Source: Enterobacter phage vB_EclS_CobraSix
Sequence record: NC_071003.1
Length of the DNA stretch: 47,816 nucleotides
Direction: 5' to 3' (one strand)
Part shown: piece by piece, positions 18,833 through 24,547 of the stretch
Layout: the number at the start of each line of letters is the position of its first letter
Position numbering within the stretch: the stretch's first letter is position 1
Notes under the pieces: model-generated
Told to the model about the DNA's origin: nothing
Databases searched by the model: none
What the model saw: only the letters and a program-made list of their open reading frames with translations
Made by a program: the position numbers and the translations under genes

Positions 18833-20890
18833 ATGGCTACCACACCTACTCAGAAACCGGTCCCGAGCGAATCACCGATTGATCTGAAATACAACGCCGG
18901 GAAAATTGACGAGTTCGTTACCTCGATGGGATGGACTTACATTGACCGTTTCGGCAATAAGCATTATACGATCGAGGGCCTGCGCTGGCTGGCACAGCAG
19001 GCCATCTCCCAGTTCGGGTATATCACCCTGGACAGCTTTGAAGGCGGAAATACGCTTACGCTTCCAAACCAGGTTCTGCGACTTGAAGCGACCGGCGAAT
19101 ATTATCGCTGGGACGGTCCTTTCCCGAAGGTGGTATCTCCTGACTCCACTCCAGAATCTACAGGCGGCATAGGTCCTGGAGCATGGTTAAGTGTTGGTGA
19201 CGCATCTCTTAGAACACAATTGGGAAATAATGATGGGTTCAGGCTTCTTGGTGAGTGCCCAGATGTAGCCACCCTCCGTCAAACTGAACCCAAGAGCATT
19301 GGCCAGTTGATCCGGGTACAAAATTATTACTCAGACAAATTTGGTGGTGGGGGATTCTTCCGCAGTGTTAATCCCGGATCGCTGGTAGACGATGGCGGTC
19401 TTTATATCAAAACGTCCGGCGGAGCTGTGTGGCGTCGGTGCGTCAAAAATAAACAGGTCAGCACAGAAGAATATGGATGCTGGGATGGGAATACAGGATC
19501 TGACAACTCTGCACGCCTGTTGAAAGCATGCGCCTCTGGTCTTGACGTGAAAATGATGGGGGAGAATTATAATGTCGTTAGCATCCCTTCAAGTCGCTTC
19601 AGCCTGACCGGTAGAATGAAAGCCTCTACTACTGATTTTTCCACAGCATACGGTCGTACGCTCCTGACATTGACCGGAGCGAATGTAACTTATGATATCG
19701 ATATCGACATGCAGAATTTCGGCGCTGGTGGTTTTATCAACCAGGGTACAGACACTGTTGGTCGCATCAAGGTTTCGAATATCTATGGTGCTAACAGAAC
19801 GACTTATGGCCTCCAGAACGCAGTAACGGATGAAGGAACAAGAAACACCATTTCTGCCATTATTCGTAATATTCAGAAGGGGGATACTGGTGTTGATCCG
19901 CAGCCTGCTGCATTCACCGTAGGTGCTACAGCTCAGCGAGGAAACTACCCAGATGTTAACATCTATGACAGTCAAGGTGGGGTAATCGTTGCAGCCACCA
20001 CTGAAACGGTATTCGGTGTTATCACTGCCAGGTTGATCCACGATAATGGAATTTACTGCCTTGATGGTAGTCGCGTTTCGATCTCTGAAATGGTTGTTGA
20101 TAACGGATTAGGCGAGCCCGTTGTAAATGCTGGCGGGATAGTAAACATAGGGGTTCTGCGTATCAGAGAGTGCTCTGGATATGGCATTACATACTCGTAT
20201 AGTGGAACAATGCGCATCGATGCCCTGTATATCGACAACACCCTAAGTTCATCTATTATGCCAATTCTTCGTAGCAGGCCTGATAATGTTAGCAGCACAA
20301 TCCGGATAGGCCGAATCGAGGGAACATGCGTTCTTGCTGGAGTTACTGCTAGCATTCTTCATTCTATGTTCTCTATAACGCAGGGTGTGACAGATTTGTT
20401 CATTGGCGATGTAAACCTGCGAGTGAATTATGTAACCGGATCATATCTTGGCATGGCAGATTTCTCGGGTTGCTCAAGGATCCAGTTAGGTAACTGGACG
20501 ATAGATTTCAACGACACCACAGGCACACTCACATCAGCAAGCATCGCTTACTTCGCTCTACCTTCGACAGCTCAGCTCGCCGGTTCTCAGGTTGGGTATC
20601 AGAACTACAGATCAACCACAGCCACAGTGCGAATGACTAATGTCGGCAACGACACAATAGATTTTGCTGTAGGTCAGGCGCTACAGGTAAATGCAGGACC
20701 CTACATCAGTAGCGCCGTTACAGCCAACTGTCGCATATTTCACGCGGCGGCAGTACCAACAGCAGGCAAGTGGTATAGTGGAGATAAGATATTTATCATC
20801 ACTCCGGGTACAGCAGTGAAACTTGGCTGGGTTTGCACGCAAACTGGAGACTTCTCAGGCACTGCGCCGACATTCCAGTTGATGGTGTAA
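18833..20890 (+). CDS. Tailspike / tail fiber with beta-helix (pectate-lyase-like) receptor-binding/depolymerase domain
   Basis: 685 aa with an N-terminal anchor domain. The C-terminus carries repetitive beta-helix-like motifs (NGIYCLDGSRVSISEMVVDNGLGEPVVNAGGIVNIGVL...). Confidence 0.7.
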   Translation: MATTPTQKPVPSESPIDLKYNAGKIDEFVTSMGWTYIDRFGNKHYTIEGLRWLAQQAISQFGYITLDSFEGGNTLTLPNQVLRLEATGEYYRWDGPFPKVVSPDSTPESTGGIGPGAWLSVGDASLRTQLGNNDGFRLLGECPDVATLRQTEPKSIGQLIRVQNYYSDKFGGGGFFRSVNPGSLVDDGGLYIKTSGGAVWRRCVKNKQVSTEEYGCWDGNTGSDNSARLLKACASGLDVKMMGENYNVVSIPSSRFSLTGRMKASTTDFSTAYGRTLLTLTGANVTYDIDIDMQNFGAGGFINQGTDTVGRIKVSNIYGANRTTYGLQNAVTDEGTRNTISAIIRNIQKGDTGVDPQPAAFTVGATAQRGNYPDVNIYDSQGGVIVAATTETVFGVITARLIHDNGIYCLDGSRVSISEMVVDNGLGEPVVNAGGIVNIGVLRIRECSGYGITYSYSGTMRIDALYIDNTLSSSIMPILRSRPDNVSSTIRIGRIEGTCVLAGVTASILHSMFSITQGVTDLFIGDVNLRVNYVTGSYLGMADFSGCSRIQLGNWTIDFNDTTGTLTSASIAYFALPSTAQLAGSQVGYQNYRSTTATVRMTNVGNDTIDFAVGQALQVNAGPYISSAVTANCRIFHAAAVPTAGKWYSGDKIFIITPGTAVKLGWVCTQTGDFSGTAPTFQLMV

Positions 20891-20920: not shown

Positions 20921-21011
20921 CGATGCGAAGAGGACATGCTTTGACTAGATTTGGCTTTACTTGCAATCGGCATGGGATACAATGCGGTGATTTGCTGTCT
21001 GGTGCTTGCAA

Positions 21012-22304
21012 ATGTCAGATTACACATCGATATTTACGTACATATTTCCGATCATATACTTTACTATACTTTTCTTTCTTGCTGCTCATTCTTTCATCAG
21101 GAACGGGATCAGATTCAAATCTGTAGGTCTGATGTTCCTTGTGATAACTCATTTCGTTGGCTACGCGTCTTTACCTTTCCGTGTTGATGCGCTTGTTCCC
21201 GCTGATGTATATATGCCAGTAGAGTATATAAATGATGTTTCACTAAAATCATTCATCGGAATCATAATATTTTATCTGGCATCTCATTTACTATCGCCAA
21301 AGCCAAGAGGAATGGCGAGAGGGAAGATTTTTTTCGGATCTGCAAACTTATTTGTAGCAATATCGTTGTCGGTATCTATCCTTGCAATGATCATCTTCTA
21401 CATAACCAAAGGTTCATCATTCGACTCAGATAATTACGCATCTAAATTAGGGGAAAATGCGGGGAGCGGGCTTTTGCTTATGCCTATGTCAGCTTTTGTT
21501 CCCGCCGTTATTGTCTATAGCTTCACATCTAAATCAAAATATGCATTTGCTAAGTCATGTGGCATTTCTATCCTGTTTGGTGTTGCTTTTTATATACTCA
21601 TAGGTGGCTCAAGAAACGTAATGTTCTCAGCATTATTAATGGCGACCTTGATATGCTTCGTAACAGGAAAGATAAATAAATTCAAGTTCTTGATTATTGG
21701 ATGCATAGGGCTTTTCCTTGTGGCGGCGCTCGGGATGCTGCGCTACTCAAACTCCATGTCCAGTTCAGGAGCAGCGCTAAGTTTGGCTATACAGTATCTG
21801 ACTGACAGTCTGTCCCCAATAAACTACCAGTACGAGGCGGTAAAATATTACGACAACACAACAAATCCCGACGCTGTTGGCGGAATATATTACATGTTTA
21901 GCCAGTTTTCTGGATTTGTGCCGCGCTTCCTTTGGGAGGAAAAGCCAATTGTTACAATGAACAGCTCATACTATTTTACGACTAACATACTAGGTATGAG
22001 TAGCGGATTGAACATGGCCTCGACTTTGCTAGGATCATCACTAGTGTTGTTCGGCGGATATTTTTATTGGCTGGCTTATGCGTTATCAGGTCTGGTTGTA
22101 AGGATGTTGGATATAATAATAAACAGCAACAAACTTACGGTTATGTCAATAGCTGGTTTCGTAACGGTGCCTTTCACTTTCTTTATGGCCCGAGAAAGCG
22201 TTGAGCTATTTATGTTCATCTACTTTAAAAACCTAATTGTCGTAAGCTTTGTCTACCTTTTATTCAAAGTAGCCTCATCTATTATCCCAAAGAAAGCCGC
22301 TTGA
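21012..22304 (+). CDS. Polytopic membrane protein, Wzy/EpsG-like (putative O-antigen/polysaccharide polymerase; lysogenic conversion)
   Basis: About 430 aa with more than 10 predicted TM segments. Very AT-rich (foreign), carries its own promoter-like TTTACT-N17-TACAAT, and sits directly after the tailspike. Confidence 0.4.
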   Translation: MSDYTSIFTYIFPIIYFTILFFLAAHSFIRNGIRFKSVGLMFLVITHFVGYASLPFRVDALVPADVYMPVEYINDVSLKSFIGIIIFYLASHLLSPKPRGMARGKIFFGSANLFVAISLSVSILAMIIFYITKGSSFDSDNYASKLGENAGSGLLLMPMSAFVPAVIVYSFTSKSKYAFAKSCGISILFGVAFYILIGGSRNVMFSALLMATLICFVTGKINKFKFLIIGCIGLFLVAALGMLRYSNSMSSSGAALSLAIQYLTDSLSPINYQYEAVKYYDNTTNPDAVGGIYYMFSQFSGFVPRFLWEEKPIVTMNSSYYFTTNILGMSSGLNMASTLLGSSLVLFGGYFYWLAYALSGLVVRMLDIIINSNKLTVMSIAGFVTVPFTFFMARESVELFMFIYFKNLIVVSFVYLLFKVASSIIPKKAA

Positions 22305-22340
22305 CCTATTAATTCACCCCTCAAATATCGAGGGGTGCAT

Positions 22341-22496
22341 CTAACCCTTCATCTTATTAGTTACTTCAAGCGCCAGCCAGGCAGCGATAAGCAGCAAGAA
22401 TATGGCAACAACCCACTTGTTATCCACGGACCCGGTGACGAGAAGGCACACCATTGAGACACCCAACACTCTTGGTATGTTTATCCCGTCCTTCAT
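22341..22496 (-). CDS. 51-aa membrane peptide
   Basis: MKDGINIPRVLGVSMVCLLVTGSVDNKWVVAIFLLLIAAWLALEVTNKMKG. Its start overlaps the stop of an upstream 21-aa ORF (ATGA). Confidence 0.35.
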   Translation of the reverse strand: MKDGINIPRVLGVSMVCLLVTGSVDNKWVVAIFLLLIAAWLALEVTNKMKG

Positions 22497-22558
22497 ATAT
22501 CAGTACCGGGCAGCGCAAAGACGAACAGCACAACAGCCATGATAAGTAGCCACTCCAT
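22497..22558 (-). CDS. 21-aa hydrophobic leader-like peptide
   Basis: MEWLLIMAVVLFVFALPGTDI, with a perfect SD AAGGAG 8 nt upstream and an extended -10 (TGGTAAAAT) further upstream. Confidence 0.25.
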
Positions 22559-22632
22559 CTTTTTCTCCTTTAAAAAAATCATTTTACCACATGGTTGAGA
22601 ATGATCACTTGATCAGTTCTTCTGAATGATAA

Positions 22633-22652
22633 TACTGTATTAATATACAGTG
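22633..22652. promoter_or_regulatory. LexA (SOS) box TACTGTATTAATATACAGTG
   Basis: CTGT-N8-ACAG palindrome lying 20 bp upstream of the umuD'-like start. Confidence 0.75.
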
Positions 22653-22673
22653 GCGTTTTAGGGGGGGTGGGAC

Positions 22674-22979
22674 ATGGAGGCAAAAGCACAGAGATACAGG
22701 CTTGAACAGTTATGTGGGGTTAACCGCTACTCATGCCTGGTTGAAACGTCAGGCGGTTATGCGCTTTTTCAGCCTGATCTTGTGCCCGACAACGGAACGC
22801 GCGTGCTGGTGCATGCGTTCGGACAACTACAGTTCGCGGTCGTTATGGGCGGGGCGCTCATCACCGAAGACGGTGAAAGCATAGAAGGCGATGGTTTAGA
22901 TGAAGTTGAAGTCATGGGAGTGATAACCTTCTTTATAAATGGCGCTGCGGCGTTCACAGACGACAATCCGGTGATGTGA
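22674..22979 (+). CDS. UmuD'-like polymerase V accessory subunit (truncated S24-family)
   Basis: 101 aa, stop ATGA-coupled to umuC. Shows weak similarity to the UmuD core (QRxxLxQL...ETSG). It lacks the N-terminal arm, and the catalytic Ser/Lys appear substituted. Confidence 0.5.
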   Translation: MEAKAQRYRLEQLCGVNRYSCLVETSGGYALFQPDLVPDNGTRVLVHAFGQLQFAVVMGGALITEDGESIEGDGLDEVEVMGVITFFINGAAAFTDDNPVM

Positions 22980-24247
22980 TGTTTGCCCTGGTCGATGTGA
23001 ACTCATTTTATGCGAGCTGTGAGACAATATTCAGGCCCGATCTGCGCGGAAGACCTGTTGTCGTTCTGTCGAATAACGACGGTTGCGTAATAGCACGTAG
23101 CGCCGAAGCAAAGGCTGTCGGGATAGCGATGGGTGAGCCGTTCTTCAAGCAGAAAGAGCTGTTCCGGCGGGCTGGCGTTGTTTGCTTCAGCAGCAACTAC
23201 GAGCTCTATGCAGACATGTCCAGCCGGGTAATGACTACGCTGGAAGAAATGAGCCCGCGCGTGGAAATTTACAGCATAGACGAAGCCTTTTGCGACCTGA
23301 CCGGCGTAAGAAACTGCCGTGACCTGACTGAATTTGGTAAAGAAATCCGCGCGACCATTTTACAGCGGACGCATCTCACAGTTGGCGTCGGCATAGCCCA
23401 GACCAAGACGCTGGCGAAGCTGGCTAACCATGCTGCGAAAAAATGGCAACGGCAGACTGGCGGGGTGGTTGACCTCTCAAACGTCGACCGGCAGCGCAGG
23501 TTAATGGCACTGGTGCCGGTAGAGGATGTCTGGGGCGTTGGCCGGCGCATCAGCAAGAAACTGAACGCTATGGGCATCAAAACGGCACTGGACCTCTCAG
23601 AACAAAGCACGTGGATTATCCGCAAGCACTTCAATGTCGTGCTGGAGCGAACCGTCCGGGAACTGCGCGGCGAGCCATGCCTGGATCTGGAGGAGTTCGC
23701 GCCGGTGAAGCAGGAAATTGTATGCAGCCGATCTTTTGGCGAACGCATTACTGACTATGAGCAAATGCGGCAGGCTATTTGCAGCTACGCGGCCCGTGGT
23801 GCTGAAAAGCTTCGCGGCGAGCACCAGTATTGCCGTTTTATATCCGCCTTCATTAAGACCTCTCCGTTTGCCCTTAATGAGCCGTATTACGGAAACAGCG
23901 CATCGGTAAGGCTGCTCACGCCAACGCAGGACAGCAGAGACATCATCAACGCCGCGGTAAAGTGTCTGGACAAAATCTGGAAGGACGGTCACCGGTACCA
24001 GAAAGCGGGTGTCATGCTGGGCGACTTCTTCAGCCAGGGCGTGGCCCAGCTCAACCTTTTCGATGACAGTGCACCTCGAGCTGGTAGCGAGAAGTTAATG
24101 GAAGTGCTGGATCACCTGAATGCAAAGGACGGAAAGGGCACGCTCTATTTTGCCGGGCAGGGTATACAGCAGCAATGGCAGATGAAGCGTGAAATGCTGT
24201 CGCCTCGATACACTACGAGATTTTCAGATTTGCTTGTTGTCCGATAA
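22976..24247 (+). CDS. umuC: Error-prone DNA polymerase V catalytic subunit UmuC (Y-family)
   Basis: 423 aa. N-terminus MFALVDVNSFYASCE...SNNDGCVIARS...YSIDEAF is a highly conserved enterobacterial UmuC sequence. Confidence 0.9.
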   Translation: MMFALVDVNSFYASCETIFRPDLRGRPVVVLSNNDGCVIARSAEAKAVGIAMGEPFFKQKELFRRAGVVCFSSNYELYADMSSRVMTTLEEMSPRVEIYSIDEAFCDLTGVRNCRDLTEFGKEIRATILQRTHLTVGVGIAQTKTLAKLANHAAKKWQRQTGGVVDLSNVDRQRRLMALVPVEDVWGVGRRISKKLNAMGIKTALDLSEQSTWIIRKHFNVVLERTVRELRGEPCLDLEEFAPVKQEIVCSRSFGERITDYEQMRQAICSYAARGAEKLRGEHQYCRFISAFIKTSPFALNEPYYGNSASVRLLTPTQDSRDIINAAVKCLDKIWKDGHRYQKAGVMLGDFFSQGVAQLNLFDDSAPRAGSEKLMEVLDHLNAKDGKGTLYFAGQGIQQQWQMKREMLSPRYTTRFSDLLVVR

Positions 24248-24249
24248 AA

Positions 24250-24547
24250 GAGGTGCGCACCTGATAAATCTTACAATCGGATCGGCGGTGATTATGCTGA
24301 TGACAGAGGTAGGCGTAAAGCTGCGTGTTACAAAACTGGAATGAGCTACGCAAAGTTGAGGCGATGGGGCATATATGGGGCATGAAACAGCACTCGCTCT
24401 AAGGTGAACTCAGACGACTGATGTTTTCTACGACTATAACCATCTGTTATTTGGTGCGCTCTTGGACGATCTTTGTCGATTATGAAAAATGTATGCTCAT
24501 GTGATGGGCATGCAAGTTTAGGTTATCTAACCTAATGATATTTATAA
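24250..24547. other. attP region
   Basis: Noncoding stretch between the cargo and the int 3' end. Direct repeats ATGGGGCAT at 24364-24372 and 24375-24383, and TGGGGCAT/ATGGGGCAA at 24573-24591. An 18-bp palindrome TTAGGTTATCTAACCTAA at 24518-24535. Confidence 0.5.

Follow-up and report, generated by a model that had tools for sequence, protein, structure and literature searches.

A candidate two-peptide form of the phage seroconversion cassette, unrelated in sequence to known inhibitors, in Enterobacter phage vB_EclS_CobraSix

We identify a conserved pair of very small, overlapping genes beside the polymerase gene of Enterobacter phage vB_EclS_CobraSix, the phage that matches the stretch of DNA analysed here (47,816 nucleotides, NC_071003.1; hereafter the window) and in whose record both products are labelled hypothetical proteins. 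We propose, at a probability of roughly 0.55, that the two products are seroconversion peptides that would disable the resident O-antigen polymerase or its co-polymerase so that the phage Wzy takes over. We infer this function from genomic context, and the link to known inhibitors is one of function and position, not of sequence.

Both ORFs lie on the minus strand between a Wzy-like gene, which ends at 22304 on the plus strand, and a LexA box, as a first-pass annotation of the region had placed them. The elements it had described, namely ORFs of 21 and 51 codons, an ATGA overlap, an AAGGAG Shine-Dalgarno (SD) sequence and an extended -10, are all seen in the sequence. The extended -10 of the peptide operon (TGgTAAAAT, 22581..22589, minus) comes without a good -35 and predicts a transcription start at about 22574. 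The SD AAGGAG (22565..22570, minus) stands 6 nt 5' of the ATG of ORF1 (22493..22558, minus; ATG at 22558, TGA at 22493), which encodes the 21-aa peptide MEWLLIMAVVLFVFALPGTDI and is annotated as the 29-aa COBRASIX_28. ORF2 (22341..22496, minus; ATG at 22496, TAG at 22341) encodes 51 aa, is identical to COBRASIX_27 and starts within the ATGA (22496-22493) that it shares with the stop of ORF1. A GC-rich hairpin, CACCCCTC-N7-GAGGGGTG (22315..22337, no strand assigned), separates ORF2 from the convergent WzyE-like gene. Its folding energy is -18.8 kcal/mol on one strand and -14.7 kcal/mol on the other (z about -3.1). Every window-type locus keeps it 3' of ORF2, as does contig L017 at its end, and it is probably a bidirectional terminator with weak U tracts. 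The convergent gene (21006..22304, plus) encodes a WzyE-family oligosaccharide repeat-unit polymerase of 430-432 aa and lies 3' of the gene for a 685-aa tailspike (18833..20890, plus; Pfam Tail_spike_N), a marker of the part of the phage concerned with receptor recognition and seroconversion. On the other side of the pair, the LexA box CTGTATATTAATACAG (CTGT-N8-ACAG, 22635..22650, no strand assigned) stands 24 nt 5' of the ATG of a umuD'-like gene; the umuD'-like/umuC operon (22674-24247, plus) diverges from the pair and is followed by an integrase gene.

The association with a polymerase gene is the central observation. A Wzy-type gene lies directly 3' of the pair in the window and in 34 of the 34 related loci that reach far enough, counts that rest on related, recombining prophages and few independent lineages, because the peptide family is tiny and limited to the Enterobacter cloacae complex. 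Two arrangements occur. In 16 loci the gene is WzyE-like, convergent with the pair and located beyond the hairpin; in the other 18 it encodes a 401-aa Wzy-like protein (Wzy401), lies on the same strand as the pair and has an ATG that overlaps a 53-aa version of ORF2 by 10 nt (ATGCGATTAA), which makes three serially overlapping ORFs of 21, 53 and 401 aa. Across loci the second peptide of the module measures 51-53 aa. The WzyE-like protein of the window matches Pfam PF06899 above the cut-off (E 3.3e-18, 66 bits), and its NCBIfam matches, to the ECA polymerase and to TIGR04370, both fall under their own cut-offs; its gene is probably a phage 'new-linkage' polymerase. The 401-aa protein has no sequence relation to it. 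Several lines point to a Wzy-type polymerase here as well: sub-threshold Pfam matches to Wzy_C and O-antigen_lig, NCBI records within its 90%-identity cluster of which some read 'O-antigen ligase family protein', and homologues at 27-36% identity that sit within Wzx/Wzy-dependent capsule or polysaccharide clusters with glycosyltransferases, a flippase, Wzc and Wzi. Whichever the Wzy arrangement, the cassette has beside it a tailspike gene of a single family (68-99% identity), and this holds for all siphophage-type and epsilon15-type loci. The upstream neighbours differ, being a LexA box with a umuD-like gene, gtrB with a GtrII-type glucosyltransferase gene, or an acyltransferase-3 gene, and the glucosyltransferase or acyltransferase genes flank the cassette in many loci.

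Homologues of the window's WzyE-like protein at 55-57% identity were also seen in L048 (6001-7750) and L049 (2156-3740), each encoded directly 3' of a large gene. The L048 homologue, at 55% identity, lies 3' of the tailspike gene of a P22-like prophage, and in the short contigs L049-L051 the large gene is a 721-aa ORF. An unrelated ORF for a small TM protein is convergent with the polymerase gene in both L048 (118 aa) and L049 (45 aa), and a phage wzy accompanied by a small membrane protein may be a more general pattern.

Both ORFs behave as protein-coding genes. We compared 36 related loci drawn from assemblies, IMG/VR, metagenomes and one GTDB genome (E. hormaechei B56, CP170191.1); L033 was a spurious locus match, and further locus searches gave close relatives only. 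In all versions from these loci ORF1 is 21 codons long, the two ORFs overlap at ATGA and the reading frames are maintained. Variable sites favour third codon positions, numbering 12, 6 and 32 at the first, second and third positions of ORF2 and 11, 4 and 15 at those of ORF1. ORF1 occurs in 15 distinct DNA versions, each of 21 codons and each ending in LPGTDI with the ATGA overlap, and its dN/dS is 0.09-0.38. ORF2 occurs in 15 distinct versions of codons 1-42 and 17 of full length, with a dN/dS of 0.02-0.13 over codons 1-42 and pS reaching 0.56-0.68. Both ORFs are under purifying selection, and the conservation of the pair goes far beyond chance. Neither of the two findings named at first annotation as refuting the pair, broken ORFs in related phages or missing signals for transcription and translation, is seen in these sequences: frames, length and overlap are kept across loci, a stop in L013 belongs to a decayed remnant, the extended -10 is kept in siphophage-type loci and the SD in intact ones. 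The consensus TGnTAAAnT stands at -31 from the ORF1 ATG in every siphophage-type locus, even where the upstream DNA is unrelated and has no LexA box, and the SD of ORF1 is kept as AGGAG or GAGGA.

The decayed remnants, L013-L016, are prophage remains near yedD and fliE, with an IS transposase, that keep the 21-aa ORF, the 53-aa ORF and Wzy401 and have lost the tailspike. Only in these loci is the ORF1 SD mutated (to AAGAAC), and only in L013 is there a stop, at codon 3 of ORF1. Their ORF2 carries the additional substitutions R9G, K27R and L36H. In these remnants the peptides appear to be decaying while wzy is still intact.

The ORF1 peptide has one hydrophobic, TM-like stretch (GRAVY 1.87, hydropathy) and a conserved LPGTDI tail. 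Its most divergent version, the epsilon15-type MTIL(F/L)IMLVVLIVLMLPGTDI (pS about 0.63), keeps the same length and hydrophobic character, as well as the LPGTDI tail and the ATGA overlap. Because this version carries synonymous changes within the LPGTDI codons, selection on ORF1 acts on the peptide and not on the junction sequence alone. We rejected the 29-aa start of the database annotation and take 21 aa as the conserved form, since the upstream ATG sits inside the -10 element and is missing from other variants.

The ORF2 product is predicted to form a two-helix hairpin, with helices at residues 7-23 and 27-50 in an AlphaFold2 model of moderate confidence (pLDDT 71.6) and with hydropathy in agreement, so that its initial description as a single-TM peptide is probably wrong. 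ORF2 lacks an SD and its start codon overlaps the stop of ORF1; because of these two features we consider its translation probably coupled to that of ORF1 by termination-reinitiation. Fusion of the two ORFs by frameshifting was rejected, as the ATGA junction has no slippery heptamer.

Serial overlap of this kind could also mean that the ORFs are upstream ORFs that deliver ribosomes to wzy and that the peptides themselves have no function. The three overlapping ORFs of the Wzy401 arrangement, with neither ORF2 nor wzy401 preceded by an obvious SD, fit such a role. However, we consider it very improbable: purifying selection acts on the amino acids, the LPGTDI codons and the whole of ORF2 tolerate synonymous changes, and both the window type and L017 keep the pair with its own terminator and no downstream gene.

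A closer functional tie to the phage polymerase also has to be weighed, in which the peptides would be accessory or regulatory partners of that enzyme, such as an assembly factor, a stabiliser or a mini-Wzz-like modulator of chain length. In 18 loci the pair shares an operon with the gene for the 401-aa Wzy and overlaps it translationally, and the C-terminal tail of ORF2 tracks the Wzy type, reading ...ALEVTNKMKG with WzyE-like genes and ...TLEIYLKNKKCD with Wzy401. Yet a common peptide core is found with both of the unrelated polymerase families, the pair forms a separate, convergent transcription unit in the window type, and the difference in the tail can be put down to the overlap with the wzy start together with a recombination joint. 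We therefore judge the partner role unlikely. The joint itself falls within the 3' end of ORF2 (about 22341-22375, compared with L017 and L011), and the last 9-11 ORF2 codons swap as a block, with the downstream DNA, according to Wzy type. Between L017 and the window, the 5' part of ORF2 is divergent and the tail and hairpin are nearly identical. That these peptides occur with either of two unrelated Wzy families, and retain a terminator of their own where no gene follows, leads us to favour a host target over a dedicated partner.

Another role raised at first annotation, from the leader-and-peptide architecture, was that of a type I toxin locus, some of which are SOS-regulated; such a locus would have a leader ORF ahead of a small hydrophobic toxin and might be induced through the nearby LexA box. 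The pair does resemble tisAB, mok/hok and dinQ in having a small hydrophobic peptide with a coupled upstream ORF (in the manner of mok/hok or tisAB), some members of that group are LexA-controlled, and the box lies within 50-60 bp of the promoter. The distance between the box and the -10, initially put at about 60 bp, measures 46 bp from edge to edge and about 57 bp from centre to centre. In SOS-class toxins (tisB, dinQ) a LexA operator overlaps the promoter; here the box is 46 bp away, upstream of the -10, and only 24 nt from the umuD'-like start. A strict LexA box is present only together with a divergent umuD-like gene, and in gtr-type, oac-type and epsilon15-type contexts the box is absent or degenerate and the peptide genes are intact. 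Judged by this arrangement, the box is part of the divergent umuD'C promoter and is dispensable for the peptide pair, to which it does not belong.

The cis-antisense RNA that a type I system would need is likewise not apparent. The sole antisense promoter-like site (22454-22481, plus) loses its -10 in other variants, and an Rfam search of the locus gave no family at E up to 1; no conserved antisense or overlapping sRNA gene of the kind found in type I toxin-antitoxin loci was detected by these means. Because the box is limited to umuD contexts, the antisense -10 is not conserved and Rfam is empty, we do not count SOS control or a cis-antisense RNA among the features of the module. The SD of ORF1 is strong and unsequestered, PADLOC, Pfam and NCBIfam gave no toxin match, and the module is always linked to wzy and never occurs alone. 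Taken with these points, a type I toxin or SOS role is extremely improbable, and this alternative from the first annotation is not supported.

Several features of the neighbouring promoter region and integration end are recorded here in their own right. Two GATC (Dam) sites 8 nt apart (22603-22615; minus strand, cTGATCAagTGATCAtt) lie in the -35 region shared by the umuD' and peptide promoters; both are kept in LexA-box contexts, one remains in L032/L037 and neither is present in gtr-type contexts. Such a GATC pair recalls the Dam-dependent phase variation of gtr operons. A homopolymer at about 22652-22672 (poly-C on the minus strand, poly-G on the plus) occupies the SD region of the umuD'-like gene just 5' of its ATG and ranges from 6 to 10 nt among otherwise near-identical loci, differences that could reflect slipped-strand variation of umuD' translation or an assembly artefact. 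The UmuD-like protein of the window has 101 aa, belongs to phrog_3469 ('UmuD-like') and has no Peptidase_S24 Pfam match, and those of other loci are S24-type proteins of 127-129 aa. The window's protein, which we take to be comparable to P1 HumD, matches the NCBIfam HumD model at E 0.14, far under the cut-off, and looks like a pre-truncated UmuD' analogue. Host genes (yedD, DUF535, SRAP, tolA-like) lie directly 3' of umuC in prophage loci, and the phage attachment site is probably located between umuC and the integrase gene (window 24248-24547).

Known seroconversion systems offer a positional counterpart. In the epsilon15 record, gp22 (66 aa, two TM), whose role as 'serotype conversion: alpha polymerase inhibitor' is a GenBank annotation, is followed by gp21, 'serotype conversion: beta-polymerase', and then by a convergent tailspike gene. 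L038 shows the order lysis cassette, then, divergent from it, the 21-aa, 53-aa and Wzy401 ORFs, then a convergent tailspike gene. Across the integrase-lysis region L017 shares 81% identity with epsilon15, and the homology ends about 80-95 nt 5' of ORF1, where the gp22 cassette begins in epsilon15. Because L038 and L017 thus carry the pair in the slot that holds gp22 in epsilon15 (5' of a phage wzy, between the lysis cassette and the tailspike gene of Uetakevirus genomes), the pair is equivalent to the epsilon15 inhibitor gene in position and architecture. In the Enterobacter epsilon15-like phage BUCT554 the gp22/gp21 slot is taken by gtrABC. The likeness to gp22 extends to a small membrane peptide followed by a Wzy, to two helices with a basic C-terminal tail, although the two-TM form applies to the 51-aa peptide only and at moderate model confidence, and to an extended -10 TGgTAAAAT upstream in both. 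In contrast to epsilon15, the window pair adds a coupled upstream 21-aa peptide, its module also occurs in lambdoid siphophages and with a convergent WzyE-family polymerase, and its peptides have no detectable sequence similarity to gp22 (no BLASTP alignment at E up to 100; Smith-Waterman z 0.5). A class II holin or other lysis protein was considered for the pair and rejected: such a gene would belong to the late lysis cassette and run in the direction of the endolysin gene, whereas the pair and the lysis genes diverge in both L017 and L038, and in siphophage contexts the pair lies in an att-proximal moron region with its own promoter.

Phage D3 provides the second comparison. There a 31-aa Iap with one TM occurs with wzy-beta and an O-acetylase near the tail fibre gene, and published work describes Iap as a small TM peptide in competition with Wzz for Wzy (PMC12004945, PMC4815439). 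ORF1 is similarly tiny and hydrophobic with a single TM-like stretch, and it belongs to a tailspike- or fibre-proximal unit with an adjacent phage Wzy, which sometimes includes an O-acetyltransferase (here in L018, L031 and L032). Unlike ORF1, iap is a separate gene that is not coupled to a second peptide, and there is no sequence similarity between them. Against D3 Iap and E. coli WzzB and WzzE, the peptides scored z values of at most 1.2, and comparisons with the TM segments of WzzB/WzzE and with phage Wzy proteins were not significant; for mimicry of Wzz TM2 this is a weak test, as the Wzz proteins were those of E. coli and not of the Enterobacter host. The Iap-type role put forward in the first-pass annotation thus has strong contextual support in the Wzy adjacency, in the overlap with wzy in half of the loci and in the epsilon15 slot, and the similarity in sequence to Iap or gp22 that might have accompanied it is not found. 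Gnarl phage proteins of 40-90 aa also change the O-antigen (PMC12373910). They resemble our pair as small phage accessory proteins that disturb O-antigen synthesis, but they act as stand-alone effectors, whereas the window pair consists of membrane peptides tied to a phage Wzy.

Wider searches found the family only in its own kind. Locus DNA gave no matches against a phage collection (blastn) or E. coli genomes (megablast), tblastn of the peptide against phages gave none, and Pfam, PHROGs, NCBIfam and PADLOC held no family for either peptide. A profile HMM run against 1.84 billion representatives recovered the peptide family itself and one repetitive artefact, with no remote homologues. In Pfam and NCBIfam scans epsilon15 gp22 and D3 Iap did not reach any curated cut-off either.

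We propose that the module, comprising its own promoter, a 21-aa peptide, a coupled two-helix peptide of 51-53 aa and either a terminator or a downstream wzy, is a portable unit of lysogenic conversion. The peptides would be expressed in the lysogen from the extended -10 promoter and both would insert into the inner membrane. There, if D3 Iap and epsilon15 gp22 are a guide, they would put either the resident O-antigen polymerase or the Wzy-Wzz complex out of action. This would leave the phage Wzy to join the same O-units by a different linkage, and the converted lysogen would stop displaying the receptor for the phage's own tailspike. A point against this inhibitor reading is that nothing in the model accounts for there being two peptides.

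The peptides might instead be conversion factors with another target, for instance DNA entry in superinfection exclusion, or an envelope enzyme such as an O-acetyltransferase, WaaL or one of ECA synthesis, in which case a shared moron location would account for the linkage to wzy. Consistent with this, the module is mobile, with its own promoter and terminator, and it lies at a prophage end where unrelated morons such as umuD'C also gather. ECA is a possible polymer, since the adjacent polymerase belongs to the WzyE family. Classical epsilon15 conversion, moreover, includes an unassigned third inhibitory function. However, the adjacency of a Wzy gene in every evaluable locus holds across three phage backbones and several upstream contexts, and in half of the 34 loci the pair physically overlaps wzy. 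We regard a different target as doubtful.

A more specific version of the proposed polymerase inhibition is conceivable, and we put it forward as a speculative and rather doubtful idea. The pair would act as a two-component 'headless Wzz' decoy, in which the 51-aa hairpin mimics TM1/TM2 of Wzz and the 21-aa peptide completes the interface. Such a decoy would either deprive the resident Wzy of its co-polymerase or block Wzy itself, so that the incoming WzyE-family or Wzy_C-like enzyme takes over. If true, the module would act as a generic and portable 'polymerase-swap' switch, passed by recombination between siphophages and epsilon15-like podophages.

On balance the locus is somewhat better explained as a sequence-orphan, two-peptide form of the phage seroconversion cassette than as anything else. 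Silencing of the resident polymerase by a prophage that brings its own Wzy is known in only one or two phages (D3, epsilon15), and such silencing is an explicit open question for prophage-driven capsule conversion in Acinetobacter (PMC13228068). The pair represents a candidate family of inhibitors that is new and unrelated in sequence, from the Enterobacter cloacae complex, a group of clinical importance. Its architecture is unusual in that two peptides are coupled and occur with polymerases of two unrelated families. Confirmation of this role would add to the known peptide inhibitors of Wzy/Wzz, a class that has been proposed as a source of leads against O-antigen assembly (PMC12004945), and would make shifts in serotype and phage susceptibility easier to predict from genomes.
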